Both the position numbers and the translations under genes were made by a program. A stretch of 50,738 nt of DNA from a virus (lineage: Duplodnaviria; Caudoviricetes): positions 1 to 50,738 of IMG/VR virus record IMGVR_UViG_3300005807_000006; one strand, written 5' to 3'. Positions 21,765 to 38,579 of this stretch are shown here, one piece after another. The notes beneath the pieces were generated by a model. The model did not search any database, had not been told where the DNA came from, and was given only the letters and a program-made list of their open reading frames with translations. Each line of letters begins with the position of its first letter. Position 1 is the stretch's first letter.

Positions 21765-21835
21765 CGGCTTTAATAAGCTGCTGAGTGAAACGAAGTCGGT
21801 TTGATTTATTTGTTATATTATTTGAGGATGGGATT

Positions 21836-22114
21836 ATGGGTACTGGATTATTAGTGAAGGGATATTTACATAAAACCCCTATTTACGAGAAGGGTGATTG
21901 GTGTACAGAAGTTTTTATCGGTGACAGATTATTAGTTGATTCAGGTGGATTTGGCAGCGAATTCTTGGAATACGCAAAAATTTATGAAGTAATTGATGAT
22001 AATGGATTAACAAAATTAAAAAGTGAAGACGGGACGATTATAGATGAACGGCACACGAAAAATACAATGCCGTTTTTCGTGAAACTTCTACACCCTGCAC
22101 CTAACGATAGATAA
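21836..22114 (+). CDS. Cassette ORF, hypothetical
   Basis: GAGGATGG RBS, ATG 21836; bounded by GTTATAT/ATATAAC. Confidence 0.65.
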   Translation: MGTGLLVKGYLHKTPIYEKGDWCTEVFIGDRLLVDSGGFGSEFLEYAKIYEVIDDNGLTKLKSEDGTIIDERHTKNTMPFFVKLLHPAPNDR

Positions 22115-22194
22115 ATATAACATCAAGTTAAAAAGCGCGTTTTGCATCGGCTTGAATACATTGTTAGGATGAAATTAACTAAGGAGTAAGGGGT

Positions 22195-22371
22195 ATGACA
22201 GATTATTACAGCCAGTTTCACCCGAAAGAAAGGACAGGAAAAGAGTGTAAAAAAGTTAAGTGCGAGAGATATAATGATTACTTGGCGTGGAAGCTAGGGA
22301 GCAGTGCTTTAGAGTATTGTATGGCGTGTAAAAACGCTCACGTATCACAGTATAAGAGCAGCAAAAAATAA
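22195..22371 (+). CDS. Cassette ORF, 58 aa Cys-containing
   Basis: Hand-translated MTDYYSQFHPKERTGKECKKVKC...; stop inside TAAC. Confidence 0.6.
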   Translation: MTDYYSQFHPKERTGKECKKVKCERYNDYLAWKLGSSALEYCMACKNAHVSQYKSSKK

Positions 22372-22453
22372 CGTCGTTTTTAACTTGCGCCATCACCAAA
22401 CTATAAATAGAGACGCTGAGCTTTCAGCGTCAAGTTGAAAAACCTTGTTATAT
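22366..22453 (-). other. attC-like recombination site
   Basis: Arms GTTTTTAACTTGCGC / GCGTCAAGTTGAAAAAC pair with one extra G and one extra T in the right arm. Confidence 0.8.
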
Positions 22454-22475
22454 GGCAGTGAATTAAAGGAAAGAC

Positions 22476-22703
22476 ATGAACATAGACTGCTCAAAAATAG
22501 CAAACAAAAGTGACTTGCTGGTATTAGTTGGGGTGGTGATTATTATTGCTCTTCTTGGCGTGGCAGTTATGTTAACAATTTATGCTGATAACTTTATTGC
22601 TGGATTTTTTAGCGCAACAATTACTTGGAAATGGCATGGCTGGATTTACAAGCCGATAGATAGAATGCTGGATAAATTGTGGCCACCAGACGATGCCATA
22701 TAA
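22476..22703 (+). CDS. Cassette ORF, membrane protein
   Basis: Hydrophobic segment; stop inside TAAC. Confidence 0.65.
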   Translation: MNIDCSKIANKSDLLVLVGVVIIIALLGVAVMLTIYADNFIAGFFSATITWKWHGWIYKPIDRMLDKLWPPDDAI

Positions 22704-22769
22704 CGACCAAGCTCAGTTGTTGCGACTGAGCAAAGCGAAAGAGCAATCAACTGGAGTGAATTGTTATGA
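22698..22769 (-). other. attC-like recombination site
   Basis: ATATAAC gaccaa GCTCAGTTGTTGC...GCAATCAACTGGAGT gaatt GTTATGA; extra G and T in right arm. Confidence 0.85.
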
Positions 22770-22972
22770 GATTTAATGTAGGAAAATATTATAAACACAG
22801 TGGCGGCGAAATGATGCACGTGTTAGTTGCCACCAAAACAAAAGTATATGGACAAACAATGATTGCTGAATTTAATGATGGCAGCTTTAGACCTGTTGGC
22901 AATGACGAGACAAGCTCTGTTAATTGGGTGGAGTTAGACGATATTACTGAATGGGATAATTTGTTCTCATAA
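22766..22972 (+). CDS. Cassette ORF, hypothetical
   Basis: ATG overlaps GTTATG; stop inside TCATAAC; GKYYKH motif. Confidence 0.7.
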   Translation: MRFNVGKYYKHSGGEMMHVLVATKTKVYGQTMIAEFNDGSFRPVGNDETSSVNWVELDDITEWDNLFS

Positions 22973-23044
22973 CGGCTTTAATAATCCGCTAAGTGTAACG
23001 AGATCGGTTTGATTTATTGGTTATATTATTTTGGAGACAAGTAA

Positions 23045-23221
23045 ATGAGTACGTTTGAAACAAAAGAAGAGTGCCTTCCTGTTGAAAAATTTATATGGGG
23101 TTGTATAGGTTTTGACTATAGGGAATTTGCAGGTATTAAAGAATTATCTTTTTCTGATCTATTGACATTACGAAGCTTAATTGATCGTCAGGCAAACGAT
23201 TTATTTAAGAACAGCGAATAA
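23045..23221 (+). CDS. Cassette ORF, 58 aa
   Basis: Hand-translated MSTFETKEECLPVEKFIWG...; GGAG RBS. Confidence 0.6.
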   Translation: MSTFETKEECLPVEKFIWGCIGFDYREFAGIKELSFSDLLTLRSLIDRQANDLFKNSE

Positions 23222-23348
23222 ATATAATACTAAGTTAAAAAGCGCGTCTTTTTGCGCCGTCCGCGTTTATGCAATTGTTATATTTTTTTTATTCGATTAA
23301 TACGTTTTGATTTTTAAAATATATGATATTTTTATTAATAGGTGATTT

Positions 23349-23528
23349 ATGGACGGGTATACGAAAGAAGTTATTGAAACTTTAGAAAATGAATTAAAAA
23401 CCACTGATACAACAGGTGAACTATTAATGCCGATTCTTGATGAAATAATAGCGGCTAGAAGCTGTGATGATAGATCGCTATTATGCGAAAAACTATTAAT
23501 TGAAGCACGAATATTCAACAGAATATAA
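23349..23528 (+). CDS. Cassette ORF, 59 aa
   Basis: Hand-translated MDGYTKEVIETLENEL...; AGGTG RBS; stop in left end of site. Confidence 0.6.
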   Translation: MDGYTKEVIETLENELKTTDTTGELLMPILDEIIAARSCDDRSLLCEKLLIEARIFNRI

Positions 23529-23596
23529 TACTAAGTTAAAAAGCGCGTCTTTTGCGTCTTTTTGAACGAGCAGTTATAAAGTTATTGGAGAATATA

Positions 23597-23821
23597 ATGA
23601 TTGAACCTAAGGGTTTGTTAAGTGGCGAGTTTTTTGAAGAGCAAACCATAATATGCCCCGAGTGTGGTGGTTTTGGATATATAGGAGACTATGAGGCAAC
23701 AAGCGAGCCTTGCGAATTCTGTGAAGGTCAGGGAGAATACGAACAAAAAGTACCGGTTTCATGGGCTACAATCAAAGAAATATACGCAATGGCTGTTAAA
23801 CATCTTGAGGATAAATCATGA
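23597..23821 (+). CDS. DnaJ-type zinc-finger small protein
   Basis: CPECGGFG...CEFCEGQG; GGAG RBS before ATG 23597. Confidence 0.65.
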   Translation: MIEPKGLLSGEFFEEQTIICPECGGFGYIGDYEATSEPCEFCEGQGEYEQKVPVSWATIKEIYAMAVKHLEDKS

Positions 23822-23979
23822 GCATTAATCAAGATCGAGAGTCTCTTATTTTAAAAATAAAAGAGTTGATTGAATTGTATGAAAAGCGGGAAAATGATGC
23901 ACATAGACCACCCTATGAGCAAGAGGCTTATGGGGTTGTAGCATACTCTCTAAGAAAAATAATTGAGGTTAAATCATGA
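23818..23979 (+). CDS. Hypothetical 53 aa
   Basis: Hand-translated MSINQDRESLILKIKEL...; ATGA overlap with previous stop. Confidence 0.55.
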   Translation: MSINQDRESLILKIKELIELYEKRENDAHRPPYEQEAYGVVAYSLRKIIEVKS

Positions 23980-24099
23980 GCATAGGGTCAGTCAAAAATG
24001 GACTTTAGGCAGTTTAAGAAGATTTAACGAGACAAGTTTAAATAGTTAGTGTTATAATACAAATGCGGTGTGGAAGTCGCTAAAAAGAAATTGTTAGAG

Positions 24100-24189
24100 A
24101 AGGTTTAAATTTTGTGATTCTGGTGGGTTTTTCTATCTAACAGTTTCACCCCTCTTTCTAACAGGGTCACAAATTTTAAGCCTTTTTTT
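24100..24189 (+). other. Long imperfect hairpin followed by T tract
   Basis: AAGGTTTAAATTTTGTGATTCTG...CAGGGTCACAAATTTTAAGCCTT. Confidence 0.55.
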
Positions 24190-24214
24190 ATGCCTGAAAT
24201 TTACGGCTTTCACA

Positions 24215-24391
24215 GAGTTTATATAGAGAGTGAGAATTCGTAGACTGATACGATAGTTGGGCTGCTGCGAGCAAGCGAACTTTACGGACTAAGTAGTATT
24301 TTATGCCATAACGGTATCCGGAATCTTTAGCAGATATGAACAAGGCTTGCATGGTGGAGATCAGTGCCACCCTCACTCTCTATATAAACTC
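24215..24391 (+). ncRNA. Candidate structured RNA closed by 20-bp perfect stem
   Basis: GAGTTTATATAGAGAGTGAG / CTCACTCTCTATATAAACTC; 3' hairpin GGTGG-AGATCAGTG-CCACC. Confidence 0.6.
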
Positions 24392-24467
24392 AATGGTTCT
24401 TATACCAGAATTGAACCCCATTCCTCAAAAATTGAATCCAAATGCCATGTAGGCTTTAAATACAGTA

Positions 24468-24618
24468 AAGTGTTTATATGTTAGCCGGTGGCGAAATTGG
24501 CAAATGCTGATACATTTGGAAATAGCTTGTTAACAGGTATGCGGTTCGATTCCGCTGTATCAATCAGTGAAAAGTTGAATATAGGTTCGAGTCCTATCCG
24601 GCTAACATATAAACACTT
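24468..24618 (+). ncRNA. tRNA-like RNA with nested second tRNA-like domain, in 21-bp perfect stem
   Basis: D arm TGGCGAAATTGGCAAATGC, two T arms (GCGGTTCGATTCCGC, ATAGGTTCGAGTCCTAT), no CCA. Confidence 0.65.
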
Positions 24619-24822
24619 ACCAAAATTTAATTAGTAAGATCTATTTATCATTACAACATTGAGTACCGTGGATAAAGCAGGTGAAGTTGATGTGCTAACT
24701 ATCATAAGTTAGATATCGGAGCGACAACTCTTAAAACTGTTCTGCATACTGTGAGTGATAAGAATATAGATTTAACCTTGTATATCAACACAAGGTCTAG
24801 TGACCGTATTATTTAAAAAAAG

Positions 24823-27800
24823 GTGAACAAGATGCGAGTTTATAAACATAAATGGGTGCAAGTCGGCAGTGGGACAGAAAATTACACTGGAGAATGTGTA
24901 TATAGAGATAAATGTCAAGAATGTGGAGTTCTATCTTGGCGCTGGAAGGACGGTAATAGACAGATAGACTTAAAAAATAGTAATAATTGCACTATAGTTA
25001 AAAATAAGGATAAATTAAATGATCTTGAAGATGAAGCAACATGTAAGCATGGTTTTTTGGTTGGTTGTGAAAAATGTTAGAACTTATTACGCCAATGTGG
25101 AGGCCAGCTACTAAGTCAAAAAACACTCTATTAGCCGCTGGTTACTCTCAAAAGCAACTTAACGACATTGGTAAAGTGTTCGTAGAAAGAAACTGTGGCA
25201 AAGAGATTGACGGAGCATCAAGCCTATATTCTGCAATGGTGAGAAGTTCTGGGTCAGCTCACAATATTAAGCCGCCAAAAATAGACCCGCCAAAAACCGT
25301 GGAGATTAAATCAGATGAAAAAATAGAAAGCGATACAAAGCAAGCTCAGGAAGTTAAAAGCCAAACAACCAAAATGTCAAAACATGAAGCAATCGCTTGG
25401 TATGATGGCAATAGGCTAGAGTAAGCGCGGTTTAGAGAAACTAAAACAGGATATGAAAAAATGACCTATATCGAACTTGAAAAACAATATTTTAACGATA
25501 AATTTGTAAGAATATATATCGACCACATAACAACCATCGATGATGGTATTTCAGAAAACGTTAGATTTACTAGGATTCATATGGTTTGCGGTTCGTTTGT
25601 TGATGTGAAGGAAGATTTTATTGAGGTGCTAGCTAAAATCGATCTAAAAAATAAAGAAGATCAACCAAATAATTAAAGGATAATAGAATGAAAGTTGAAG
25701 CTAGCAAAGTTACAAAAATAAAAATAACAGGTGTTAATAGATTAGACCCTGTGCATGTATTCCTAGAAGACATAGAAAAAGGCAAAGGTAGGATCACAAT
25801 AACTTGCTACAGCAAAGCGTGGTCTTCGTATTGGGGTGGTATAGGAGATAAATCTATCAGTGAATTCTTTTGTTCTTGTAATGATAATTATTTAACTGAA
25901 AATCTAGCTCCTGATCTTGATAGCACTATTTACGACATCGATAAAATAAGGCTGGATGCAGAGAATAAAAATATGGATTGTTATAGGGACGACCCCTGGA
26001 ACGATTTTGAGTTCATGGTAAAAATGTACGGCAATGATCAGTATAATTGGGACGACTCTCTACCAAAAACAACCAATCACAAATATTATTATTTATGTAG
26101 AATTATCAAAGCTGTTAAGGATGGTTTGAATGATATCAATAAAGCCTTAAGTAACGAAAAACCAGCATCACAAAACTAAGAGAGAACCATAAATTTTAAG
26201 GTAGAATTAATATGAATATTAATGATAAGGAGTTTAAATTTGAAATGAGCTATAAGGACTTATTCAAGCGGGCTGTAATTAATGCAAAACCTAAAACATG
26301 TGGAAGCGCACCGAAATGGGTAGCTGTCATGGATACTTTTTCTCTAGGCTCATATTACGCAATAGAATTATGCCGAGCATTGGATTTAGATCCTTATGCG
26401 AAGTCTTTAAACACTGTTAAATGCATAACATGCAACCCATAACTTAAATAAATTATGAATCACGAAATTAAAAACATGAAATTCTCAGGATTTGGAAGCT
26501 GGAAACAATGTAGCCATTGCGGTGCGACATTTTGGGAAAAGTTGTGGCACATAGGAGGCTACAAGAGTAAATACGAGCCACCATGTCGGTTAGATCTAAG
26601 TGAAGAATGGAAAAATAACGCAGAAATAGTAGACAATTAAACATAGGATATAATTATGAGTAAATTTGATGAATCATTTAAAGAGCCTTGGATGTTTAGT
26701 AATGGACATTTAATGTTGTCAGGCAAATATACTAAAGACGAAGCTTTGTCAATATTTAAGGATTATGACGGAGATGAGCATCTAGGTTTGGATGACTTAA
26801 AAAAGGATAGGGTTAGGTTTGGATTTACTCCAAAAGACATTGAAGACTTTGAAGATCTGGATGTTTCTTGCTGGTATTCAGGGGCAAGTGGGAAAGGTTC
26901 AAAGGAAGTCTGGTATGTTGAATAACTTAAACACAGGAGATAATTAAATGAGAACGCAAACGTTACACAGTAAAATAAATAGAGCATTTGAAGTATGGAA
27001 TACAAGCTTTGACAACACTTTGTTCATCGAAATACTGCCGAGAATTAAAAAAGAATGGCGTAAATATGTTAAAGAAGACGGTGATTCAAGGTCTGGAAAT
27101 GATACATACGGTTACGAAGAGAAAGAGAGCATCAAAAATAATATGATATATATTTCAGACCGATGGAGATGTTCATTTAGACTAAAATGGTTAATTGACG
27201 GTATTGAAAATGGCAAAATATAAATAGGAGATATTAAATGATAAAAATATTTAAATACACGCTTGATAAATTAATACCTTATGTACAACCAATTGAAATG
27301 CCTATTAATGCAAAAATAATTTCAATGAAGAATCAGTGTGAAGAGATCGTATTGTGGGCAGAGGTGAACGCTGTCAATGCTTTAGAGATTAGATCTTTTG
27401 TAGTATTGGCTACTGGCGATACTAAGCTAGATGATCCTCTAAAATATCATGCAACATTGCAATTTTTAGAGGGCAATTATGTTGTACATATTTATGAACT
27501 AATAGGAGATAATTAAGTGAGTGAACGTGAAATATATTTACCCATAATAACTGACGAAATGTTTGAGATGTTTAACGAAACTTGCTTAATGGAGTGGAGT
27601 AAAGAGTTAAATAAACCTAGCTGGACTCAAATATCAGTTGAATTTTTAGCAGTTTTATTAACTAAAGAACATGGAGAATAATACAAATGAGAAAAGTAAC
27701 TATATTTGAATGGAAGGATATTAAAAAGGAGTTCGAGAAATGAGTGAATTAAAAATAAAATTTAAATCAGAAAAAGAAAAGGATGAGTTTATCAAGTGGT

Positions 27801-28246
27801 TTTTTAGTGATGCAAATATGCAAAATATGGATTTCTATTTTGGCAAAAAAACAATTGTTTACAACGGTAAAGACGAGATGAAAATAGGATGAGTAAATCA
27901 AAAATACCAAATGCAATAATACAATTTAAGTTAGATCTTAAAAATATTTACGGAAAAGATCAAACAGAACAGGTAAAAGGTGAAGCGATAGCAATTAGAT
28001 ATTGTATCCGGTATTTGGAGCGATTAAACAAAGGAGAAATAAATAATGAGTGATTTAATATTTGCTAAAACAATGATAACAACTAAACCGAAAATAGAAT
28101 ACATCCCAAAAGGCTCTATGTGCATGTCATGCTATCGTCAAAACTTAAATTGCAGTAGCTACCCTTTTTCAAAGATGCCGGTTATCTACCAATCGCTCGG
28201 TTATTTCCACGTTAGATGTACTTTTTACGAGAGATTAAATGATTGA
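24823..28246 (+). CDS. Run of small hypothetical phage genes (24823, 25074, 25461, 25688, 26212, 26455, 26656, 26948, 27238, 28046 and shorter ORFs)
   Basis: Tightly packed co-oriented ORFs with AGGA/GGAG RBS; no attC-like sites here. Confidence 0.6.
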
Positions 28247-28889
28247 ATTGATAAATATAGACTGTATGGAATATATGAAAAATTGCAAAGATAACGCGTT
28301 TGATTTGGCTATTGTTGATCCTCCATACGGAATAGGTGAGAGCGGAAAAACCAACAAATCTAGGAGTAAGCTTGCGACAGCAAAAGATTATAAGTCTTAT
28401 TGTGGAGATGATTTAAAACCGCCAGGCAAAAGTTATTTTATAGAATTAAAAAGAGTTAGCAAAAATCAAATAATATGGGGTGCAAACCACTTCATGCAAA
28501 ATATATGCTTAGGATCGAGTTGTTGGATTGTGTGGGATAAGCAAACAGGAAATTCAGATTTTGCAGATTGCGAACTAGCCTACACAAGCTTTAATACAGC
28601 AGTTAGAAAATATACGTTCCAATGGTCTGGAATGCTTCAGGGAAATATGAAAAATAAAGAATTTAGAATCCATCCGAATCAAAAGCCAGTTAACTTGTAT
28701 CAATGGTTGTTAAAATATTATGCAAAAGATGGTGATAGGATACTAGACACCCATCTAGGCTCTGCATCTAGCGCAATAGCTGCTCATTACGGCGGTTTTG
28801 ACTTTGTAGGGTGTGATCTAGATGAGTATTATTTTAAAGCTGCAAAAGAAAGGTTTAACGACCAGACCAGACAAAAGGCAATGTTTTGA
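28239..28889 (+). CDS. Orphan DNA methyltransferase (N6-A/N4-C, beta class)
   Basis: IVDPPYG catalytic motif, HPNQKP, ILDTHLGSAS SAM-binding motif. Confidence 0.9.
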   Translation: MIELINIDCMEYMKNCKDNAFDLAIVDPPYGIGESGKTNKSRSKLATAKDYKSYCGDDLKPPGKSYFIELKRVSKNQIIWGANHFMQNICLGSSCWIVWDKQTGNSDFADCELAYTSFNTAVRKYTFQWSGMLQGNMKNKEFRIHPNQKPVNLYQWLLKYYAKDGDRILDTHLGSASSAIAAHYGGFDFVGCDLDEYYFKAAKERFNDQTRQKAMF

Positions 28890-29075
28890 TAACAACTGAA
28901 GCAGAAATAAAGCACAAGAAAGCCTGCCTACGTAGACATTACGAACAAATGACATTTGGGCAGGCTAAGCGATTAATATCCGAACTAGAACCGAGACATA
29001 GAGAGACAATAAAATCTAAGCGGTTTAAGAAGCGGATAAATTTAGCGAAAGGCTATGATTTTATTTAAATAACAC

Positions 29076-29104
29076 TTGACGGGCAATGAACACAAGCGCA
29101 TACT
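29076..29104 (+). promoter_or_regulatory. Sigma70-like promoter
   Basis: TTGACG-17 nt-CATACT. Confidence 0.6.
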
Positions 29105-29132
29105 ACTGCATATCAAATAATAAGGCTTTAAA

Positions 29133-29270: not shown

Positions 29271-29614
29271 AAAAATTAACAAAAGCTCAGGAATACATCA
29301 AAGAAAATTTAGGCAACACTAATACATTTAATGATGTACAAGTTTTTAGTGTAAAATTTCCAGATGAGTTTTTAGAAGTTAAGGAGTACATCGAAAATAA
29401 CTGTATTGATAACTCTGTTTTTTTTGATGCAATGATGGATGAGACATGGTTGAGATACACTGTAGAAAAATGCACTGAAACAACTTTAAGATTTAATGAG
29501 TTTGTCGAGTACGAACTAGCAATAATCGAAGACATCGAAGAGCTAAATGAAATCGAGTCATCAAAAGAAACTTGTGATGTCGAAGCGTTTAAAAGATATA
29601 GGGGATTAACATGA
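29267..29614 (+). CDS. Hypothetical acidic protein
   Basis: ORF with AAGGAG RBS, ATGA overlap. Confidence 0.6.
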   Translation: MKKLTKAQEYIKENLGNTNTFNDVQVFSVKFPDEFLEVKEYIENNCIDNSVFFDAMMDETWLRYTVEKCTETTLRFNEFVEYELAIIEDIEELNEIESSKETCDVEAFKRYRGLT

Positions 29615-29784
29615 TTGAAAATATACAAAGTACAGCGATTATTTTATTATTATCCTGTTCTGTTTTGATGGCACTTTTTAGTAGTGATGAACTTAAGCGC
29701 TGGTTTGGATTATTAGTGAATTTTACATTCTTTGCCTCATTTTTAGCATTAATTACCACAATATTGATTAGGATTTGGTCATAA
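29611..29784 (+). CDS. Small two-TM membrane protein (57 aa)
   Basis: Hand-translated MIENIQSTAIILLLSCSVLMALF... Confidence 0.55.
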   Translation: MIENIQSTAIILLLSCSVLMALFSSDELKRWFGLLVNFTFFASFLALITTILIRIWS

Positions 29785-29826
29785 TGAAACTTGTGAAGCG
29801 TTTAAAAGACATAGGGAATTAAACCA

Positions 29827-30444
29827 ATGAAAACTACATTAAATGAAATATTAAAGCACTATCCTTGCGGCATTCATAGCAGTGGGAAAAATGGGTTTAG
29901 TTTGCTACTTAAAAACCTAGGGAAAACCGAATCTGATGACGAGCCTGTTGATCTAATGGATATTTTAAAGTCAAACGGGATAGAGGATGCAGTTTGGGCT
30001 TTGCAATGCTTTGATTATTTAGATTATTGTTTATTTAATGCGGATATGTTGGAAAGTACTTTAGATATTTTCGACGAAGAATTAAAAGCAGTCGCTGAAA
30101 AAACAATAGCTACAATTAAGTCGTACAAATCTGGCAAGATAACAAAAGATGTTTTTATTAAAGAATGGCAAGCCGCCGACGCCTACGCCGATGCCTACAC
30201 CATCGCCGATATTTTTATCAAACCAAAATCCACTATATCTATCTACGCCTACGCCATCGCCATCGCCGATGCCATCGCCGATGCCTACTCCTACGCCTAC
30301 ACCACCACCACCGCCTACACCGCCTACGCCATCGCCACCGCCGCCAACGACTACGACTACGACTACGCCTACGCCTACGCCGATCAACTAAAAGTAATAG
30401 AAAAAATATTCATCAAGCATTTTGGACGTAAAAATGAAGCTTAG
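29827..30444 (+). CDS. Hypothetical protein with Ala/Tyr/Asp/Thr low-complexity tract
   Basis: MKTTLNEI...PC...G...LL..LGKT..DDEP..L..IL.SNG..DA.W N-terminus then (AY/AD/AI)n. Confidence 0.7.
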   Translation: MKTTLNEILKHYPCGIHSSGKNGFSLLLKNLGKTESDDEPVDLMDILKSNGIEDAVWALQCFDYLDYCLFNADMLESTLDIFDEELKAVAEKTIATIKSYKSGKITKDVFIKEWQAADAYADAYTIADIFIKPKSTISIYAYAIAIADAIADAYSYAYTTTTAYTAYAIATAANDYDYDYAYAYADQLKVIEKIFIKHFGRKNEA

Positions 30445-30528
30445 CAAAAAAGAAAGGTTGGAGCTTGTTTACATTGTCGCGACTATATTTGTCTTATTAT
30501 TTTTTGTCGGATTTTTGGAGAATGGATT

Positions 30529-31548
30529 ATGAATGATTTAGTACATGTAGCACCAGCAAATACTAACCAAGTATTATCTTTGGCTCAAAAAGATTTTTCT
30601 TTAGTTTCCATTGACCAAAAAATAAAATGGGAAAAAGAATTTAATTTTGCATTACAAATATTGAGAAAAAACAAGACTCTCAACGATGTGGCTTTGGAAA
30701 ATCAACAAAGCTTAAAAGATGCAATTATTAATGTATCAGCCATCGGTATAAGCCTAAATCCAGCATTAAAACACGCTTATTTAGTGCCTAGAAAAAAGTC
30801 AGTATGTTTGGATATATCTTATATGGGCTTGTTACACTTAGCTTGCATGAGCGGATCTATTGATTGGGGTCAGGCTAAAATAGTTAGAGAAAAAGACACA
30901 TATACTAGTTTAGGTATTGATAAAGCCCCTCGGCATGAATTTCAGGCATTTGGAGATAGAGGCGGTATAGTAGGCGTTTACTGCACTGTAAAAACAAATA
31001 ACGGAGACTATCTAACTGAAGAAATGTCTATTAATGCTGTTTATGATATTAGAGATCGGTCGATGGCTTACAAATCAAGCTATGGCCCTTGGTTAACAGA
31101 TCCTGAGCAGATGATAAGGAAGACGGTAGTAAAAAGAGCGTCAAGTTATTGGCCTAAAGTAGAACGTCTTGATAATGCAATAAACATGCTTAACATCGAA
31201 AACGAGGAAGGAATAGATTTTCAAAATAACAAGCCAAAAGGAAAGAGTGGTAATTGGAAGGCTGGGGTTAATCCTAACGTGCTTCCACACAAATTAAGGG
31301 AAGTTTTTTTTAACATTAATGAGGCATTTGAAGCAGAAGACTTGCAAACCGTCCTAGAAAAATTTAAAGAGTTTGGCATAATAGAGGAGATGTCCGCAGT
31401 TTGGAAATGTTTTGCTAGTGACGAAAGATCTAAAATAAACAAATACAAAAACAGCGAAGAATATACAGAAATAACAAATTCACAAAAAGTAGAATACTTA
31501 GATCAAGATGAATTATTACATCTTTGCAAAGCTTTTAATTTTCACTAA
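30529..31548 (+). CDS. recT: RecT/Redbeta-family single-strand annealing protein
   Basis: GISLNPALKHAYLVPR, LDISYMGL, PW.TD.EQM.RKTVVKRASSYWP. Confidence 0.85.
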   Translation: MNDLVHVAPANTNQVLSLAQKDFSLVSIDQKIKWEKEFNFALQILRKNKTLNDVALENQQSLKDAIINVSAIGISLNPALKHAYLVPRKKSVCLDISYMGLLHLACMSGSIDWGQAKIVREKDTYTSLGIDKAPRHEFQAFGDRGGIVGVYCTVKTNNGDYLTEEMSINAVYDIRDRSMAYKSSYGPWLTDPEQMIRKTVVKRASSYWPKVERLDNAINMLNIENEEGIDFQNNKPKGKSGNWKAGVNPNVLPHKLREVFFNINEAFEAEDLQTVLEKFKEFGIIEEMSAVWKCFASDERSKINKYKNSEEYTEITNSQKVEYLDQDELLHLCKAFNFH

Positions 31549-31575
31549 AACAGACAGAGTAACTTTGATAAAATC

Positions 31576-31857
31576 ATGAAACACTTAAACACTAAAGAGT
31601 TTGCAAAGTTAGCGGGTATAAAAGAGCTGACTATGTTGAGTTATCACTCAAGAAAAGGTAATGGATTTATTAAGCCTGACTCTGTCGACGATAACGGAAA
31701 TCTTCTTTGGAGTTTAACTTTATGCGAAAAATGGATTAAAACAAGGGATGAAAATATCAAAAGAAAAGGGTGCGGTGAAAATAGACCAAAACATGTTGAC
31801 AACTCATCAGCAGTTTTTAATGATTTTATGTCAAAACAAAAAAGGGTATTAAGGTGA
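31576..31857 (+). CDS. Excisionase/AlpA-like HTH protein
   Basis: LNTKEFAKLAGI...F.KP...LLW...EKWI. Confidence 0.5.
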   Translation: MKHLNTKEFAKLAGIKELTMLSYHSRKGNGFIKPDSVDDNGNLLWSLTLCEKWIKTRDENIKRKGCGENRPKHVDNSSAVFNDFMSKQKRVLR

Positions 31858-32255
31858 AATTTATACAGATCATTAGATTCGGCAATCAAGTCAGAATACA
31901 AAAAGAGCGTATTTTTAAGCACGTTGATTTGCTGCATATAAAAGCTGGTCAAGAATACAAATGCACTATTGAGGAATATGAAGAAGACAGAAGCCTTGAG
32001 CAAAATAGTTATTTTCATGTTGCAATAGTGCCAGCCTGCGCGACTTTGGGCTATACGAACGAAGAAGCAAAAGCCACATTGAAAGCCGAACTATTGCCGA
32101 TTAAAAAAGTGCGTAAACTTGATGGGTCTGTGACTCAAGAACTAACCCATACAGGAGATTTAGGTGTTAGAAAAATGTCAAAATTTATTGATGAGTGTAT
32201 TATTTTATTAGGAACTTACGGCGTAACAGTACAGCCACCAACTTGGAGAAATTAG
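31854..32255 (+). CDS. NinB-like protein
   Basis: RSLEQNSYFH, T.DL....MSKFID motifs. Confidence 0.7.
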   Translation: MKFIQIIRFGNQVRIQKERIFKHVDLLHIKAGQEYKCTIEEYEEDRSLEQNSYFHVAIVPACATLGYTNEEAKATLKAELLPIKKVRKLDGSVTQELTHTGDLGVRKMSKFIDECIILLGTYGVTVQPPTWRN

Positions 32256-32256
32256 C

Positions 32257-33172
32257 ATGAAAGTTCCAGAAAAAAACATTACTTACGCATCCATAATATT
32301 TATTTTATCTATAGTTATTGTAATATTATTTTCTGATGCAAGCATAAAAAAAGAACAACAATATCAAACAACATGCGAAGCAAAAGGGCTTGAGCAAAAA
32401 CATTTTGAATATCAAGTTCAAGATAAAACTTTTAAAATATGGTGTAAATAATGAAATGTCCTGAATGTGAAATCAACAATGCAGTAGACCTTGATTGTGA
32501 TAAATGCGATGCCAGCGGCTTGATCGCAAAAGACAATGAAGACATTGAATGTTATGATTGTGGCGGTCTAGGCTACATAGACGGATGGCATGAATGTTTA
32601 GGTTGTGGACACCAGTTTGAAGAATAATATCAGAAATGTCGGCAAATTGCAGACCTATATTAGGTAGATGAGGATCAACAAATGAAAGCTTACATGGTAT
32701 TTGCAGGTTGCCCTATTGACGGATGTATCCTAGTTTATGCTGAAAGAGCGACAAAAGCTAGATCCATTGGATATGCTGAACTATTTAGTTGGGATTATGT
32801 AGAAACATCCGCGACCAGAAAGCCGGAATTCGATAAATATTATTCTGGCAAATGTATTATAGTAGAGAACAGTGAATTGCCGGAAGGTGTTGAATTTTAT
32901 ACTGAAATAGATTGTTGGTGAAAATAACTAATGAGGATTAAAAAATGAGTTCTTGTGAGAAATGCTGGCGCGATGCGTGTGGAGACCCTGAAAAATATGG
33001 TCTACTTGTTAACTTAAGAAAAGAAAACCCTTGCACGTTAGAAGAGCAAGCGGGTAAAGATGCGGCTTTATGTAAAAGTTGTGAAAGAAAAACAGTTCAC
33101 CAAATTTGTAATTTTTGCATCAATCGAAAATGTGAAATGTTTGCCGAGACAATAAAGAGGATTAACAAGTGA
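32257..33172 (+). CDS. Small hypothetical ORFs (32257, ~32451 Zn-finger, 32682, 32945)
   Basis: Short co-oriented ORFs, several Cys-rich. Confidence 0.5.
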
Positions 33173-33534
33173 ACGGAACGCCGAATAAGCTACAAAAAGA
33201 CTGGCATCAATATTTGAGAGATCGGGGCTGTTGTGTGCAAGATGAAATGTCTTACAGTCCATTATCAATACACCATATAATTGGTGCTAAAGCAAAACTT
33301 AAAGGCGTGAAAAAATTTGGCGAAAAATACGTTATTTGCTTAAGCTATTGGTGGCATCAAGATGGTCGAAATGGCGCAGCTAGACACATCAATAAAAAAG
33401 CGTTTGAGCTGGAAACTGGAAAAACTGAAAAAGAGTGGTTTATTGATTCGATGCAAAAATATAAGGACGAATACGGTCACATACATCTCGTAATGACCGA
33501 AGAAGAATATCAGATAATCAAGGCGAGAGCATGA
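33169..33534 (+). CDS. Ref/DUF968-like HNH-related protein
   Basis: GCCV...IHHI...VICL...HQ...RH pattern. Confidence 0.55.
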   Translation: MNGTPNKLQKDWHQYLRDRGCCVQDEMSYSPLSIHHIIGAKAKLKGVKKFGEKYVICLSYWWHQDGRNGAARHINKKAFELETGKTEKEWFIDSMQKYKDEYGHIHLVMTEEEYQIIKARA

Positions 33535-34022
33535 GTCACACTAACCGATTTGACGCTCGCAGAGATGGAAATGAAAAAGAAATCGTGGAGGTTTTTGAAA
33601 GAATGGGACTTAGCGTTTATCGATTAGATCAGCCCCTAGATCTGTTAATTGGCTATGACAAGCGCAATTACCTAGTTGAAGTAAAAATGCCGGGTAAGAA
33701 TTTAAACGATAATCAAGTGGAATTTGTAGCTAATTGGAAAGGGCAATTTATTATCATAAGAACGATTGAGCAAGCGATAAAATTTGCTCACGAAATAAGA
33801 AAAATTACAAAGCGAGGTCAAAAGAGTCAAATGAATACACATGGATTAGATAGCCATTATTTCAATAAAAAATTAAAATGCATGGTTAGAGATATTGAAT
33901 GCTACACGCCAGACGAAATGTTTAATGAGCTAAGTCGGTTGATGATGGTTGCAGCAATGCAAGCTGGAATAAAAGCCACAATCAAAGTTAAATTTATTTC
34001 TAAAAAAAGTAAGGAGGCATAA
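33531..34022 (+). CDS. PD-(D/E)xK nuclease (VRR-NUC/resolvase-like) with C-terminal extension
   Basis: RDGNEKEIV...PLDLLIGY...LVEVK...L.D.Q..F...W. Confidence 0.7.
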   Translation: MSHTNRFDARRDGNEKEIVEVFERMGLSVYRLDQPLDLLIGYDKRNYLVEVKMPGKNLNDNQVEFVANWKGQFIIIRTIEQAIKFAHEIRKITKRGQKSQMNTHGLDSHYFNKKLKCMVRDIECYTPDEMFNELSRLMMVAAMQAGIKATIKVKFISKKSKEA

Positions 34023-34291
34023 TGATTGAATTATTAGTTAGCGTAAACAAAAAGCCTGTTGATTTGGGCAATGGAATTACACGGCATAGCTCTATAAATA
34101 AATTATGTGCGATTGATAAAATCAGAATGACTTATAACGGCCACTATTACGCTCACTTAGTAAACAAAGAGAGTGACGCTCCATTCAACTCAGGAGGAGA
34201 ATGGGGGTCGTGGGTTGGTTTTTTTAAGAAAGAAAATAAGCATGTGCGACTACCTATTATCAAAATTGAAAGGCAAGAAGTAGATGTATAA
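34022..34291 (+). CDS. Hypothetical, stop in first attC-like site of array 2
   Basis: AAGGAGG RBS; TAA within GTATAAC. Confidence 0.65.
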   Translation: MIELLVSVNKKPVDLGNGITRHSSINKLCAIDKIRMTYNGHYYAHLVNKESDAPFNSGGEWGSWVGFFKKENKHVRLPIIKIERQEVDV

Positions 34292-34327
34292 CAATTAAGT
34301 TAACTTGCTTGAATGGAGCGCAGCGTA

Positions 34328-34618
34328 ATGAAAATCAAAGTTAAACGCCTTGTTATCTTTTTACATTGCTGGTTTTTCGGGCATGTGCCAGATGATAAAA
34401 ACACAGTATTTGATACAGATGAATATACCTATGGCTGGCATATGATGTGTAAGCGTTGCGGAATATTGGATATAGAACAGCACGAACTTATGACTGGCAG
34501 CAGAAGTTATAAGGTTAAGCAATTTGTGATTTTCTGGCTCTATCGTAGATGGTGTCCGGAGCCATGCAAAGACTGCGGTAGTCGATTCGGCAAGCACGAT
34601 AACTGCATACCGTTTTGA
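34328..34618 (+). CDS. Cassette ORF, Cys/His-rich (HCWFFGH, CKRC, CKDC)
   Basis: GGAG then ATG 34328 inside the site. Confidence 0.65.
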   Translation: MKIKVKRLVIFLHCWFFGHVPDDKNTVFDTDEYTYGWHMMCKRCGILDIEQHELMTGSRSYKVKQFVIFWLYRRWCPEPCKDCGSRFGKHDNCIPF

Positions 34619-34673
34619 AAGATAACGGCTTTAATAAGCAGCTAAGTGCAACGAACGACATGAAGGAATTGTT

Positions 34674-34907
34674 ATGCAAATTGAATTGATGAGGAGAACC
34701 GCAACGGCATTGATGCCAGGGCAATCCATAAAAATTTCCCGAGACAAGATGGTAACGGCGGCTGAAGGTATTCTTTACTCTCTGCTATTTTCTGTACGCA
34801 GAGTGGATATTAAGATCTTTGCGGAACAGGTGGCGCAAAACTGGGGGGTTACGATGACTGAGGACGCTATGACGGGCGAATGGACAATGTTCAAGCCGCA
34901 TGCATAA
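34674..34907 (+). CDS. Cassette ORF, hypothetical
   Basis: Begins in GTTATGC, ends in GCATAAC. Confidence 0.7.
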   Translation: MQIELMRRTATALMPGQSIKISRDKMVTAAEGILYSLLFSVRRVDIKIFAEQVAQNWGVTMTEDAMTGEWTMFKPHA

Positions 34908-34997
34908 CGCCATGCTCAGGAGCGCAAAAAGCACCCACTGAACTTTAAATTTAACTAAAAACCGCGGCGTTTTTTGTGTCGCCTGGAGCTAATTGTT

Positions 34998-35198
34998 ATG
35001 TATGAATGCACAGCAAAGCAGTACTGGAAAAAGATTTACAGGGTAATGCGCGTGGCAATACGCGAAGCAAATAAGGCCAGCATGGATGTGATGATCTACG
35101 GCACGGGCGCAGTAATGATCCCTAAAGATGGTGGCGACCCAAAACACGTCCCTCTTGCTAATTTGGACATGAATAATTTAACTGATCATAGGGAATAA
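34998..35198 (+). CDS. Cassette ORF, hypothetical
   Basis: ATG in GTTATG with GGAG 9 nt upstream; stop in TAAC. Confidence 0.65.
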   Translation: MYECTAKQYWKKIYRVMRVAIREANKASMDVMIYGTGAVMIPKDGGDPKHVPLANLDMNNLTDHRE

Positions 35199-35276
35199 CG
35201 ACCTTGAGCTAACCTGTGAGCGGTAGCGAATCCGGTTAAGTGATTGGTTATACAGATTTAATACGAGGATTATAAA

Positions 35277-35555
35277 ATGAAAATTAATTTACAGGTTAAT
35301 ATTGATGGAATGTACTGGAGTGGTGGTGCTGGTATTGAGGTGCCGGAATTATATAGGAAATGTTTTGAGCCAATGAAAACAGGTGATGAGCCGCTTGTCG
35401 CTATGGTTACTGGCGAGATTATGGAGCAAGAAGCTAATATTGTAATGAAAACAAGAAGTGATGCCGCCGAGATATTAGGGCGAGAATTAGCAGAGCTAAT
35501 AGTTCGTGAGATGAAAGCAAAAGATACGCACAATGGTTACGAGAAGGCTGTATAA
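35277..35555 (+). CDS. Cassette ORF, hypothetical
   Basis: GAGGA RBS; bounded by GTTATAC/GTATAAC. Confidence 0.7.
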   Translation: MKINLQVNIDGMYWSGGAGIEVPELYRKCFEPMKTGDEPLVAMVTGEIMEQEANIVMKTRSDAAEILGRELAELIVREMKAKDTHNGYEKAV

Positions 35556-35611
35556 CGACCTTGAATTAAAAAGCGCCGTTTTTTGGCGTCTTTTTGAATG
35601 ATTTGTTATGT
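35550..35611 (-). other. attC-like recombination site
   Basis: GTATAAC gaccttga ATTAAAAAGCGCC...GGCGTCTTTTTGAAT gattt GTTATGT; extra G and T in right arm. Confidence 0.85.
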
Positions 35612-35628
35612 GATTTACGGAGGACATT

Positions 35629-35820
35629 ATGACAGAAGACAGAATTGAAAAAATACAAAAATTAAACAGCGAGATAAAAAACTTTAAGGACTGCTACTGC
35701 GGCATTGAATTGTGGGGTGGTAGAGATACTTTTGTAAGTGCCGAGGTATTGATGTATTTTTTGATCGAGAATCCACACTTCCAAGAGATCGCGGATAATA
35801 TTAATAAAATGGACACGTAA
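35629..35820 (+). CDS. Cassette ORF, hypothetical
   Basis: GGAGG RBS; stop in TAAC. Confidence 0.7.
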   Translation: MTEDRIEKIQKLNSEIKNFKDCYCGIELWGGRDTFVSAEVLMYFLIENPHFQEIADNINKMDT

Positions 35821-35892
35821 CGATTAAGTTAAAGGGCGCGGCTTTATCGCGTCCATTTTGAACGCTCTGTATAACAAAGCGAGGAGATAAAG

Positions 35893-36057
35893 ATGATTTT
35901 AAAAGATGCGTATGATGAAGGCGGAAAGCTTCTTGGTGATGAATGTGTAGATTTATCAGGATTACAGGAAGACACTAAGAAAGCGATAATGCAATTAATT
36001 TACCTTGATGAAACTGTAGATATTTATAATGACGCGCTGAATAAGAAGACTACATAA
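35893..36057 (+). CDS. Cassette ORF, 54 aa
   Basis: Hand-translated MILKDAYDEGGKLLGDECVDL...; GAGGAG RBS. Confidence 0.6.
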   Translation: MILKDAYDEGGKLLGDECVDLSGLQEDTKKAIMQLIYLDETVDIYNDALNKKTT

Positions 36058-36138
36058 TGACCATATTCAGAAGTGAACGAGTGCCAGCGAGTGAATCTGT
36101 TGGAGCTATTTGTTATATTTTTTTAAGAGGGTTTATAT

Positions 36139-36339
36139 ATGATAATTATTGATAAAGGCGTGGCCATGCCTACCGAAAATGGACGCTGCAAATACCCGTG
36201 GAAAGATATGGAGGTTGGTGATTCTTTTTCACTACCTAAGTTAAGTATCTCAACAGGCGCGGTAAATGAACGATATAAGCCGAAGAAGTTTGTTGCTCGT
36301 AAAGACGGCGATGGTTATCGCGTGTGGCGGATTAAGTAA
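36139..36339 (+). CDS. Cassette ORF, small phage DNA-binding-like protein
   Basis: KYPWKDMEVGDSF...G.RVWR motif familiar from small phage proteins. Confidence 0.65.
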   Translation: MIIIDKGVAMPTENGRCKYPWKDMEVGDSFSLPKLSISTGAVNERYKPKKFVARKDGDGYRVWRIK

Positions 36340-36422
36340 ATATAATACTAAGTTAAAAAGCGCGTCTTTTGCGTCTTTTTGAATGACCGGTTATTTAATT
36401 TAAATAAATGCGAGGAAATAAA

Positions 36423-36704
36423 ATGAAATTACCTATAAATTATGAGAATCTGCACTACACAGAAAGAAGGGCTGTGCGTGAGGAGTATGTTAAGCAGCAA
36501 GATGGGAAGTGCAGCCATTGCGGAGAGCCGCTAAATTGTAAGCCTGCTGGTAATATAGTAAATAAACATGTAGATAAAAAACTATTCCCAACAGGCTTTT
36601 TTAAGTGGCCAGTGCATCTGCACCATAGCCATAATACAGGTATGACTATTGGAGCGGTGCATAACCATTGTAATGCGGTGCTGTGGCAATACCACGGCGA
36701 ATGA
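36423..36704 (+). CDS. Cassette ORF, HNH/endonuclease VII-like
   Basis: QDGKCSHC...HLHHSHNTG...HNHCN. Confidence 0.7.
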   Translation: MKLPINYENLHYTERRAVREEYVKQQDGKCSHCGEPLNCKPAGNIVNKHVDKKLFPTGFFKWPVHLHHSHNTGMTIGAVHNHCNAVLWQYHGE

Positions 36705-36814
36705 CACATAACGACATTTAATAACCTGCGGCATAAATAGCTTGCAGTAAACACGATGAGGGTTGACCGTCTGGTTGATTTTATTGTTATATTTTTTAAT
36801 TGGAGGATTTTAAA

Positions 36815-37045
36815 ATGAGTGAAGATTTTATAAGGAATAGCTTGGTAACTGCTTTTGTATGCGTTGAGTGCGGTAGCAATTTAAGTCTATCTTATAAAAG
36901 CAAGAAAGGCAGCGGTAGAATGGTAGATGATGAGCCAACAGGCGCGGCAATGGTTAAAAACGTGATTTACATTTACCCTTGTGAAAAATGCCTAGAGCCT
37001 GCCATTAAAGCTAAACAGGCAGTAATGGCTTTAATGGAAATATAA
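36815..37045 (+). CDS. Cassette ORF, Zn-ribbon
   Basis: CVEC...CEKC; GGAGG RBS; stop in ATATAAC. Confidence 0.65.
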   Translation: MSEDFIRNSLVTAFVCVECGSNLSLSYKSKKGSGRMVDDEPTGAAMVKNVIYIYPCEKCLEPAIKAKQAVMALMEI

Positions 37046-37140
37046 CATCAAGTTAAGAAGCGGTTAAATATGCAATGACGAGGGACTCAAATTCTGGTGG
37101 GAAAGTCAGAGTTTATAATTTTTAACTGAGGAAATAGAAG

Positions 37141-37380
37141 ATGAAATTTGAGCCAAATGATTTTTTTGGAACAGTACATGTACAGGTTAAACACAGCAAG
37201 TTACTTGCTAATGGAGAGCCTAACAATTTTTGGCGAAATGCACTCTATGTGTGTCAGCAAGATGATGCACATGTAGTGATTTATGCAGATGGCACAAAAG
37301 AAGTCCTAAAACAAAGAACGAAAATACGAATGACACATGACGGCTTTAATAAGCCGCTAAGTGAAACGAAGTCGGATTGA
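37141..37380 (+). CDS. Cassette ORF reading into downstream site
   Basis: GAGG RBS; C-terminus THDGFNKPLSETKSD encoded by site 37335-37394. Confidence 0.6.
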   Translation: MKFEPNDFFGTVHVQVKHSKLLANGEPNNFWRNALYVCQQDDAHVVIYADGTKEVLKQRTKIRMTHDGFNKPLSETKSD

Positions 37381-37412
37381 TTTATTGGTTATATTTTAAA
37401 TGAGGATTAATT

Positions 37413-37625
37413 ATGGGTTATGAAAAACCAGAAGCGGATGAGTGGGTTCAGCCGGTAAGAAAAGATTACAAGTTAGCCTGCTGTGATTGCGGGTTAGTGC
37501 ATAACATGGATTTTAGAATTAAAAAAGGCCGGATTCAATTTAGGGTACGGCGCAATAATAGAGCTACTGCTGGTATGCGGGTCGGGATGGGGCTAAGAAA
37601 GAAAAAAGACGGGACATGGCTTTAA
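37413..37625 (+). CDS. Cassette ORF (CCDCGLVH motif)
   Basis: GAGGA RBS; motif familiar from small phage proteins. Confidence 0.7.
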   Translation: MGYEKPEADEWVQPVRKDYKLACCDCGLVHNMDFRIKKGRIQFRVRRNNRATAGMRVGMGLRKKKDGTWL

Positions 37626-37706
37626 TTGATACCTAACGTCAAGTTAAAAAGCGCGTTTAGCGTCCGATTTTGAACGCCTTTTTATGCGGGGTAAAAGGAT
37701 AAACAA

Positions 37707-37964
37707 ATGCAACAAACAAAACTAAGCTCTTTAATTGAGTCATTTATAAATGTATTAATTGGGTATGGAGTAGCTTTAATTTCACAATTATTAATTTTCC
37801 CGATGTTTGGTATTCATGTTTCTCTAAGTACAAATTTATATATAGGCGCATGGTTTACGCTTATCAGTTTAATTCGCAGCTACATTATACGGCGATGGTT
37901 TAATGCAAAATTACATAATGCGGCGCAAGCTTTAGCTAAACAAGGTGCCGAACGATTCAGATAA
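37707..37964 (+). CDS. Cassette ORF, two-TM phage membrane protein
   Basis: SLIESFINVLIGY...SLIRSYIIRRWFN. Confidence 0.7.
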   Translation: MQQTKLSSLIESFINVLIGYGVALISQLLIFPMFGIHVSLSTNLYIGAWFTLISLIRSYIIRRWFNAKLHNAAQALAKQGAERFR

Positions 37965-38028
37965 CCAGCAGGCGGGTCTTATCGACTGTCTGCAATTGCC
38001 TTGTTATGTGCAGGGCATGGAGGTAAAA

Positions 38029-38220
38029 ATGAACGAAGAACAAACAGAAATGGAAAAATGCACAATCTACACGCGCCGAGGTGATAGGTATGAGATTAAG
38101 TGCAGACTTGGATTGTGGAGTGTTGATGCACCATACGGGTTGGCTTTGATAAATGAGGCTAATCACTATTTTCAGCAATACAAAGCTGATGGAGAATACA
38201 ACAAGTTACTTGATACATAA
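38029..38220 (+). CDS. Cassette ORF, hypothetical
   Basis: GGAGG RBS; bounded by GTTATGT/ACATAAC. Confidence 0.65.
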   Translation: MNEEQTEMEKCTIYTRRGDRYEIKCRLGLWSVDAPYGLALINEANHYFQQYKADGEYNKLLDT

Positions 38221-38249
38221 CGATCTTGAGCTAACAGGAGAGGAACGAA

Positions 38250-38501: not shown

Positions 38502-38579
38502 CGGACATGCTCAGAAGTGAGCGAGCGACAGCGAGTGAATCTGCTGGAGCTACTGGTTATATTTTTATTGGAGAATGTT

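Follow-up and report, generated by a model that had tools for sequence, protein, structure and literature searches.

In integrons, the core heptamers of a gene cassette pair across the cassette and mismatch within the composite site that separates it from its neighbour, which is the classical signature of recombination at a conserved triplet and, by now, textbook biology. Both strands of the recombination site, attC, read AAC ... GTT; only unpaired features distinguish them, and the bottom strand has been reported to form the more stable fold. Cassettes of a different kind are found in T4-type phages, where small accessory open reading frames (ORFs) are bounded by repeated hairpin modules, the promoter-early stem-loops (PeSLs), and have been proposed to shuffle as mini-circles. 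PeSLs recombine by homologous recombination between repeats and are not known to have the site anatomy of an integrase-type system, and core complementarity across the ORF is not expected of them. Here we describe two arrays of small ORFs and hairpin sites in the 50,738-nucleotide phage record IMGVR_UViG_3300005807_000006, analysed over its whole length and referred to below as the window. We consider it likely that these arrays are integron-type gene cassettes, present as clusters of attC sites without an integrase (CALINs), in a podovirus-like phage of ~50.5 kb that has no integrase of its own.

Several published observations bear on this comparison. According to the account of attC strand choice in Nivina et al. 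(2016, PMC5027507), the integrase cuts where A meets C in the bottom-strand AAC triplet, wild-type bottom strands carry their extrahelical bases on the arm opposite this triplet, and promoter-facing cassettes are stated never to have been observed in mobile or chromosomal integrons. A CALIN is defined as at least two attC sites on the same strand, separated by less than 4 kb and with no intI in the vicinity, and an inverted, Treponema-type group of integron integrases is mentioned in the same paper (Cury et al., 2016, PMC4889954). Among 10,705 phage genomes, Qi et al. (2023, PMC9892861) report three complete integrons, one In0 element and 17 CALINs, each with at least two attCs; in their account CALINs occur in virulent and complete integrons in temperate phages, and five of six phage attCs recombine with IntI1. 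Given these reported findings, phage CALINs are already a known kind of element.

The window contains 23 sites of the general form NNATAAC ... GTTATNN, located in the intergenic stretches between + strand ORFs. They lie in two arrays of 7 and 16 co-oriented sites with a spacing below 600 nt and bound ~22 single-ORF cassettes, which together occupy 12.6% of the phage genome (Table 1). The left triplet is AAC in 18 of the 23 sites (AAT in four, GAC in one), and the right triplet is GTT in 19 of 22. Inside these ends are unpaired spacers of 5–6 nt, followed by an L box of 3 bp, a bulge and at least 4 bp. Of the 21 sites aligned, 16 have G as the bulge base, which lies 9 nt 5' of GTT. The sites vary from 51 to 100 nt in length and comprise at least three repeat families plus singletons, with a mean column identity of 37% in a MAFFT alignment that does not align the long sites structurally. 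An R box ending in AAC and GTT, a spacer with a bulged L box, and a structure that is kept while length and sequence vary are the features that mark an attC, and all of them are found here. Our reference site was the aadA1 attC of plasmid R100, whose coding strand runs, in order, through inverse core, 5-nt spacer, L arm with an extra base, loop, L arm, 6-nt spacer and core. As predicted from their sequences, then, the sites have integron attC structure.

A strict scanner, purpose-written for attC anatomy in which extrahelical bases sit on the arm across from the cleaved AAC, returned eight matches on the + strand of the window, seven of them curated sites, and none on the minus strand. Fifty shuffles of the window gave means of 0.9 (+) and 0.7 (minus), and 1.1 Mb of other loci gave 21 and 20 matches on the two strands, respectively. 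A relaxed version recovered 12 curated sites on the + strand at a background of 7.8 and 6.1 matches per shuffled window, which is too high for judging other loci. Blind hairpin scans based on ungapped arms, constrained folds or duplex energies were dropped as too noisy for site definition. Since the 23 sites have attC anatomy and the window has no integrase, we assign the arrays as two CALINs: each has at least two attCs on one strand less than 4 kb apart with no intI nearby, and the window nowhere shows the arrangement of a complete integron, with intI beside an attI and an array.

The heptamers that flank the ORFs provide a second line of evidence. A first-pass annotation of this DNA had listed eight ORFs for which the heptamer before the ORF is the exact reverse complement of the heptamer after it, and all eight pairs proved to be exact. 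It had also stated that the two ends of one palindrome usually mismatch, and indeed none of 20 sites has an exact within-site 7-mer. We reassigned left heptamers among right heptamers over the 20 adjacent site pairs, a permutation that keeps the GTTAT bias. Exact across-ORF 7-mers occur in 8/20 pairs against a permutation mean of 2.01, a count reached in 4 of 100,000 shuffles (P ~4e-5), so that the excess over shuffled pairing holds despite this bias. Exact 8-mers are found in 7/20 pairs (mean 1.10; 0/100,000 shuffles). Position by position, matching exceeds the permutation mean at position 6 (13/20, mean 7.3, P 0.005), position 7 (16/20, mean 10.9, P 0.005) and position 8 (16/20, mean 6.6, P 1e-5), and not at position 9 (8/20, mean 6.25, P 0.23) or position 10 (2/20, mean 4.31, P 0.97). 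Because the match extends through position 8 and is lost at position 9, the paired box is 8 bp long with a sharp end. When the invariant crossover base is left out, positions 2–8 match exactly in 11/20 pairs (mean 2.3; 0/200,000 shuffles), compared with 1/22 within sites, and among pairs with a dinucleotide other than AT, 7/12 match. Complementarity between a cassette's own core and its own inverse core, rather than between the ends of a composite site, is thus what the arrays display. The across-ORF pattern is strong and not universal.

This pattern would follow from the integron mechanism. An integron integrase would exchange single strands at the conserved AAC/GTT triplet of a folded hairpin, so each intergenic site would be a composite attC that takes one R-box end from the cassette on its left and the remainder from the cassette on its right. 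In an excised circle the two cassette ends would join to give a fully paired 8-bp R box. Strand exchange at the triplet, combined with a box that is paired in the circle, predicts complementary octamers on either side of an ORF, whereas the ends of a single site need not match. The same complementarity is predicted whichever arm is cut, and the heptamer pattern is therefore independent of polarity.

Polarity was read from the unpaired features, with class 1 integrons as controls (the R100 aadA1 site and the attCs after aadA1, aac(6')-IIc, blaIMP-1, aphA16 and aadB). There the scanner matched intergenic attCs solely on the strand opposite the genes (6/6); two extra matches within coding sequence look false. 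Scored site by site, the non-coding strand reached 8–9 and the coding strand 2–4 in 5/5 controls. In the window the + strand, which is the ORF strand, scored better in 18 of 22 sites, with two ties and two sites that favoured the minus strand at uninformative scores of 1 vs 2; the + strand fold was also the more stable in 16/21. Placement of the ORFs on the + strand is backed by ribosome-binding sites before each start and by PHROG matches for three cassette proteins. The published CALIN of Tetrasphaera phage TJE1 has ordinary polarity by the strict scanner, and since the same scanner was used, the reversal is neither an artefact of the method nor a general property of phages. These data show that the coding (+) strand of the window is the attC bottom strand, the reverse of the class 1 controls and of TJE1. 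A promoterless ORF on the attC top strand with its attC on the 3' side, the arrangement of a typical gene cassette, is not what these arrays contain, and we accordingly file the cassettes as a reversed-polarity variant.

With bottom-strand polarity on the + strand, the predicted cut, NNNATAA|C, falls within the heptamer that follows each ORF. The first-pass annotation had interpreted the heptamers as a footprint of circular cassettes that integrate by crossover in the core. That interpretation is supported; what has to be revised are the box, which is 8 bp and not 7, and the predicted cut, which falls at A|C after the ORF and not at G|TT before it. Each cassette would then consist of the C, the attC body, GTTATNNN, a ribosome-binding site or leader, and an ORF that usually ends exactly on its TAA stop. 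The TAA of the upstream ORF coincides with positions 4–6 of the left heptamer in 16/23 sites, which places the end of the ORF exactly at the predicted cut, and six ORFs stop 0–5 nt ahead of the heptamer. Two ORFs begin inside the preceding site (B0 and B13). Site, leader and start codon are conserved as a block in front of differing ORFs in B7/B15 and A0/B10, and B7 and B15 are identical through the ATG plus one codon.

A relative of these arrays lies next to an integrase. A metagenome scan with the pattern of the family-2 sites returned a single contig, L098, whose 42.6-kb sequence is the same as that of an IMG/VR record rated 71% complete. It resembles a temperate phage of the lambdoid kind, with genes for an O-like replication protein and a CII-like protein, a repressor and an antirepressor, a C5 methylase, an excisionase and an integrase. 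Its integron, situated between the antirepressor and methylase genes, has six attC sites, 84–89% identical to A3, B4, B5 and B15 of the window, and seven small + strand ORFs, directly followed by intI. The encoded protein of 321 aa scores 423 bits against TIGR02249 (cut-off 265); its alignment with IntI1 spans 316 residues, contains one gap and shows 45% identity. Across-ORF heptamers are exact in 6/6 cases, with five different heptamers and with the intI-side junction included; 2 of 720 permutations reach six matches, and within-site matches number 0/6. The final heptamer, in segment 8468–8520 of L098, lies ~45 nt before the intI start and has no attC body after it. Such a terminal matched heptamer is as expected of an attI junction, and this putative attI would be unusually short, with only ~45 nt between the terminal octamer and the intI start codon.

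Bottom-strand polarity falls on the ORF strand in five of the six L098 sites, with one tie, and all seven ORFs and intI are on this strand. The 5' end of intI adjoins the array and the gene is transcribed away from it, so that relative to attC polarity the platform is of the ordinary kind; it is the cassette genes that are reversed, so that they point toward intI. The polarity of L098 agrees with that inferred for the window from structure alone. The L098 integron is part of the early operon, between the antirepressor and the methylase-xis-int genes, so that intI and the cassettes may be co-transcribed. For the window phage, the integrase would be supplied in trans, by a co-resident phage of the L098 type or by the host, and cassette expression would presumably depend on read-through transcription from the phage on the + strand. 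L098 and the window share no cassette ORF. A second IMG/VR contig, L100 (54.9 kb), encodes at 7001–7945 an IntI-like protein with 48% identity to that of L098; nowhere beside this gene does the strict scanner find an attC array, and L100 may be an In0 element or may carry sites that the scanner missed.

Compared with class 1 and chromosomal integrons, the sites resemble the attC, or 59-base element, in their AAC/GTT R box, unpaired spacer, L box and bulged G at the same distance. Variable site length and sequence, one ORF per cassette, complementarity of core and inverse core across the cassette, and the IntI-family integrase beside the related L098 array are further likenesses. The arrays differ in that every scorable cassette has its ORF on the attC bottom strand, with genes toward intI, that the R box is 8 bp and the core GTTAT rather than GTTRRRY (which only A1 fits), and that they reside on a phage replicon, in the window without an integrase. 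The CALIN of TJE1 as reported (PMC9892861) has three attCs, whereas the window phage has 23 sites in two arrays; gene polarity is ordinary in TJE1 and reversed in the window phage and L098. As in the Treponema-type group, so far as it is outlined in PMC4889954, integrase and cassette genes of L098 are on one strand. Unlike that group as outlined there, intI of L098 is opposite to the attC polarity, as in ordinary integrons, and has its 5' end abutting the array, and it is the ORFs that are reversed.

A number of observations weigh against integron-type cassettes of reversed polarity. The 23 sites were curated manually by eye, anchored on AAC/GTT triplets and repeat families. Exact 7-mers are lacking in 12 of the 20 pairs, and the right end is degenerate or missing in four sites (B5, B9, B11 and B13); these imperfect pairs and degenerate ends point to possible decay or loss of activity in part of the array. 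The window has no integrase of its own. L098 was located through its similarity to a window site, so the shared site family is not independent evidence and L098 is a biased sample; the independent evidence it offers is the integrase, the junction and the 6/6 matches. The 68 IMG/VR loci found by their portal gene, three of these contigs examined whole, share only structural and packaging genes with the window and give background scanner counts, and neither circle junctions nor deletion variants nor cassette polymorphisms were seen. The family-2 site is absent from bacterial genome contigs, where nine chance matches in coding sequence fall mostly in one conserved gene of Bdellovibrio-like genomes. 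Finally, some sites share sequence not just downstream of the left heptamer but upstream of it too (27 nt in B9/B11, 28 nt in A5/A6), and ORF 37141–37380 runs 40 nt beyond the predicted cassette end.

These last two points, blocks of homology that continue into the end of the upstream ORF and an ORF that ends inside the site downstream of it, would be explained if the elements were true integron cassettes of ordinary polarity, each an ORF with a downstream attC and a crossover at G|TT before the ORF. Ordinary polarity is the rule in integrons and is followed by the CALIN of TJE1, and the covariation of the heptamers fits this placement equally well. It is nevertheless unlikely here. Bulge polarity is opposite in 18/22 window sites and reversed relative to 5/5 class 1 controls, the two ORFs that begin inside an upstream site are not expected, and neither is the common block of site, leader and start codon that is retained in B7/B15 and in A0/B10. 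In L098, moreover, integrase and terminal matched heptamer are at the end that reversed polarity predicts, and no attC follows the ORF nearest intI.

An improbable alternative dispenses with a site-specific recombinase altogether and takes the sites as regulatory hairpins of the phage, serving as terminators, RNA-processing sites or promoter-stem-loop modules and spread by homologous recombination or gene conversion. It would account for the joint conservation of site, leader and start codon, for the co-orientation of every site with transcription, and for the membership of several cargo genes in phage families. Seven of the 23 sites have a terminator-like match, five of these on the + strand. 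Over the region, however, terminator-like matches (17 vs 11.8 +/- 3.5 expected) are not enriched, and promoter-like matches (77 vs 73.5 +/- 8.5) are at background level. Nor do regulatory hairpins predict octamers that are complementary across ORFs and mismatched within sites; the anatomy equals that of attC down to the spacing of the bulged G, and the same site families adjoin a true integron integrase in L098. Intrinsic terminators and repetitive extragenic palindromic (REP)-like repeats were likewise rejected, since they would place a GC-rich hairpin with a T run at most sites, whereas a terminator-like match falls in 7/23, and since the pairing depends on the neighbour. The first-pass annotation's argument that the sites are not merely terminators or REP-like repeats thus withstood scrutiny. 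Chance matching from the GTTAT/ATAAC bias and the common AT dinucleotide, which draws some support from five of the eight exact 7-mers being GTTATAT/ATATAAC, the commonest type, or near it, and from the ~2 matches that shuffles still give, was tested by shuffling and rejected as extremely improbable, because composition-keeping shuffles reach the observed count in 4/100,000 (7-mers) and 0/200,000 (positions 2–8), 7/12 pairs with a non-AT dinucleotide match, and the result is replicated in L098, 6/6 with five different heptamers.

Table 1. Arrays, sites and cassette ORFs in the window.
Feature	Position	Strand	Left end	Right end	Family and remarks
Array A	21759..23579	+			sites A0–A6 (7), bounding 6 single-ORF cassettes
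A0	21759..21818	+	CTATAAC	GTTATAT	family 1; strict scanner match; polarity score 9 vs 2
A1	22115..22169	+	ATATAAC	GTTAGGA	family 2
A2	22366..22453	+	AAATAAC	GTTATAT	
A3	22698..22769	+	ATATAAC	GTTATGA	89% identity to L098 site M5
A4	22967..23026	+	TCATAAC	GTTATAT	family 1
A5	23222..23283	+	ATATAAT	GTTATAT	family 2; weak L box
A6	23523..23579	+	ATATAAT	GTTATAA	family 2; final site of array A
Array A ORFs (6; 58–92 aa)	21836-22114, 22195-22371, 22476-22703, 22766-22972, 23045-23221, 23349-23528	+			
Array B	34286..38816	+			sites B0–B15 (16), bounding ~15–16 single-ORF cassettes
B0	34286..34358	+	GTATAAC	GTTATCT	start codon of next ORF inside site
B1	34620..34677	+	AGATAAC	GTTATGC	left half family 1
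B2	34902..35001	+	GCATAAC	GTTATGT	longest site (100 nt)
B3	35193..35253	+	GAATAAC	GTTATAC	polarity uninformative
B4	35550..35611	+	GTATAAC	GTTATGT	family 2
B5	35815..35875	+	ACGTAAC	GTATAAC	family 2; right end degenerate
B6	36052..36118	+	ACATAAT	GTTATAT	family 3
B7	36340..36396	+	ATATAAT	GTTATTT	family 2; same as B15 through 5' leader to ATG+1 codon
B8	36706..36792	+	ACATAAC	GTTATAT	
B9	37040..37075	+	ATATAAC		left half only, with family 2 left arm; right heptamer unrecognisable
B10	37335..37394	+	ACATGAC	GTTATAT	family 1; upstream ORF runs 40 nt into site
B11	37631..37687	+	ACCTAAC	TTTATGC	family 2; right end degenerate
B12	37959..38009	+	AGATAAC	GTTATGT	shortest site (51 nt)
B13	38215..38298	+	ACATAAC	ATTATGC	right end degenerate; next ORF begins inside site
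B14	38496..38562	+	GCATAAC	GTTATAT	family 3
B15	38760..38816	+	ACATAAC	GTTATTT	family 2; last complete site
Array B ORFs 1–8	34328-34618, 34674-34907, 34998-35198, 35277-35555, 35629-35820, 35893-36057, 36139-36339, 36423-36704	+			
Array B ORFs 9–16	36815-37045, 37141-37380, 37413-37625, 37707-37964, 38029-38220, 38250-38501, 38580-38765, 38843-39001	+			

After the last cassette ORF, the segment 39008–39040 reads ..CTAAC followed by a AAGTTAGAAAGC-like arm. It lacks a right end, its heptamer does not match B15, and it may be what is left of one more family-2 left half. The arrays gave no Rfam matches at gathering thresholds. Of 26 small proteins scanned, one exceeded the Pfam cut-off (DUF7220), three had solid PHROG matches and the remainder had none; the PHROG matches are to the products of ORFs 36423–36704 (5.6e-35), 37707–37964 (5.5e-28, also the DUF7220 protein) and 38843–39001 (7.4e-13), and no array A ORF matched a Pfam or PHROG family. 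Homologues of two cargo proteins occur in 71 and 58 phage records, and in two phages that we inspected they lie in tightly packed gene rows without attC-sized spacers. The cargo thus looks like ordinary small phage accessory genes. A suspected paralogy between the B6/B7 ORF and the B14/B15 ORF was not borne out. Cultured phages gave no DNA match to the window, and their portal proteins are at most 27% identical to its own; four loci found through the endonuclease gene beside array B lack an array. No viral contig contained an exact 26-mer of family 2, and a degenerate 20-mer scan gave two chance matches, both in coding sequence.

The window is a single contig and, by PHROG and Pfam matches, a podovirus-like tailed-phage genome. 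An exact direct repeat of 253 bp at the ends of the record (33–285 and 50486–50738) leaves a unique length of ~50,485 bp; either the genome was assembled as a circle or it has true direct repeats at its termini, and the source classes the record as 'linear'. The same matches identify structural genes (capsid/major head protein, tail tube proteins, portal and a T7-type head-tail connector), the small and large terminase of the packaging machinery, and genes for RecT, a NinB-like protein, an endonuclease, an N6/N4 methylase and an Rz-like spanin, nearly all on the + strand. No match to the tyrosine recombinase family PF00589 was found in the six frames of the window, a record rated 98% complete.

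Several further features lie outside the arrays. ARAGORN called no tRNA in the window. A segment of 124 nt (24482–24605), within a gene-poor stretch of 840 nt just after array A (23980–24822), matches the full Rfam tRNA model at 32.1 bits (gathering score 29) with an insertion of ~50 nt, and could be an interrupted or degenerate tRNA gene. A periodic repeat of 12–15 nt in ten overlapping copies (30162–30387) lies inside ORF 29827–30444, which encodes a 205-aa protein of PHROG family 18326 (function unknown); the repeat encodes a low-complexity stretch rich in Ala, Asp, Tyr and Thr. The sole minus-strand gene block is at 42700–45500, where GC skew is reversed. Its two pairs of repeated upstream segments (43634–43679 / 45129–45174 and 44207–44286 / 45391–45470, 78% identical) give the impression that promoter or leader regions of small unknown ORFs have been duplicated. 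Segments 29557–29673 and 29778–29881 are 68% identical and ~220 nt apart; they run across the points where one small ORF ends and its neighbour starts, and resemble a gene junction that has been duplicated locally.

The mechanism behind these arrays is the known integron one and not a discovery of this analysis. What is new is that arrays of this size occur in a phage without an integrase, that the box has 8 bp, that gene polarity is uniformly reversed, and that there is a link to an integron integrase carried by a phage. Our literature search found no description of arrays that consist wholly of reversed-polarity cassettes, in phages or elsewhere; the supplementary tables of PMC9892861, which lay outside its scope, may list larger or reversed arrays. 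The arrays are unusual in that the genes of all scorable cassettes lie on what studies of integrons regard as the non-coding, recombinogenic strand, and in that this reversal recurs beside a genuine integrase in the sister array of a temperate phage. If confirmed, this would mean that phages trade accessory genes through integron recombination, and it would offer a tractable system for studying how genes become attached to attCs and how strands are chosen where the coding strand is also the recombined strand. We tentatively propose, as a possibility that falls somewhat short of probable, that phages of this group maintain a cassette pool of their own in the reverse sense, in the order attC, ribosome-binding site and ORF with its stop codon at the cut, which is read toward intI from phage promoters rather than from Pc, and that members without an integrase, such as the window phage, exchange small accessory or early genes by means of an integrase that a temperate phage (L098 type) provides in trans during co-infection or in lysogens. 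If this is true, the integron would be a device for shuffling genes from phage to phage, beyond a bacterial array that a phage has acquired.

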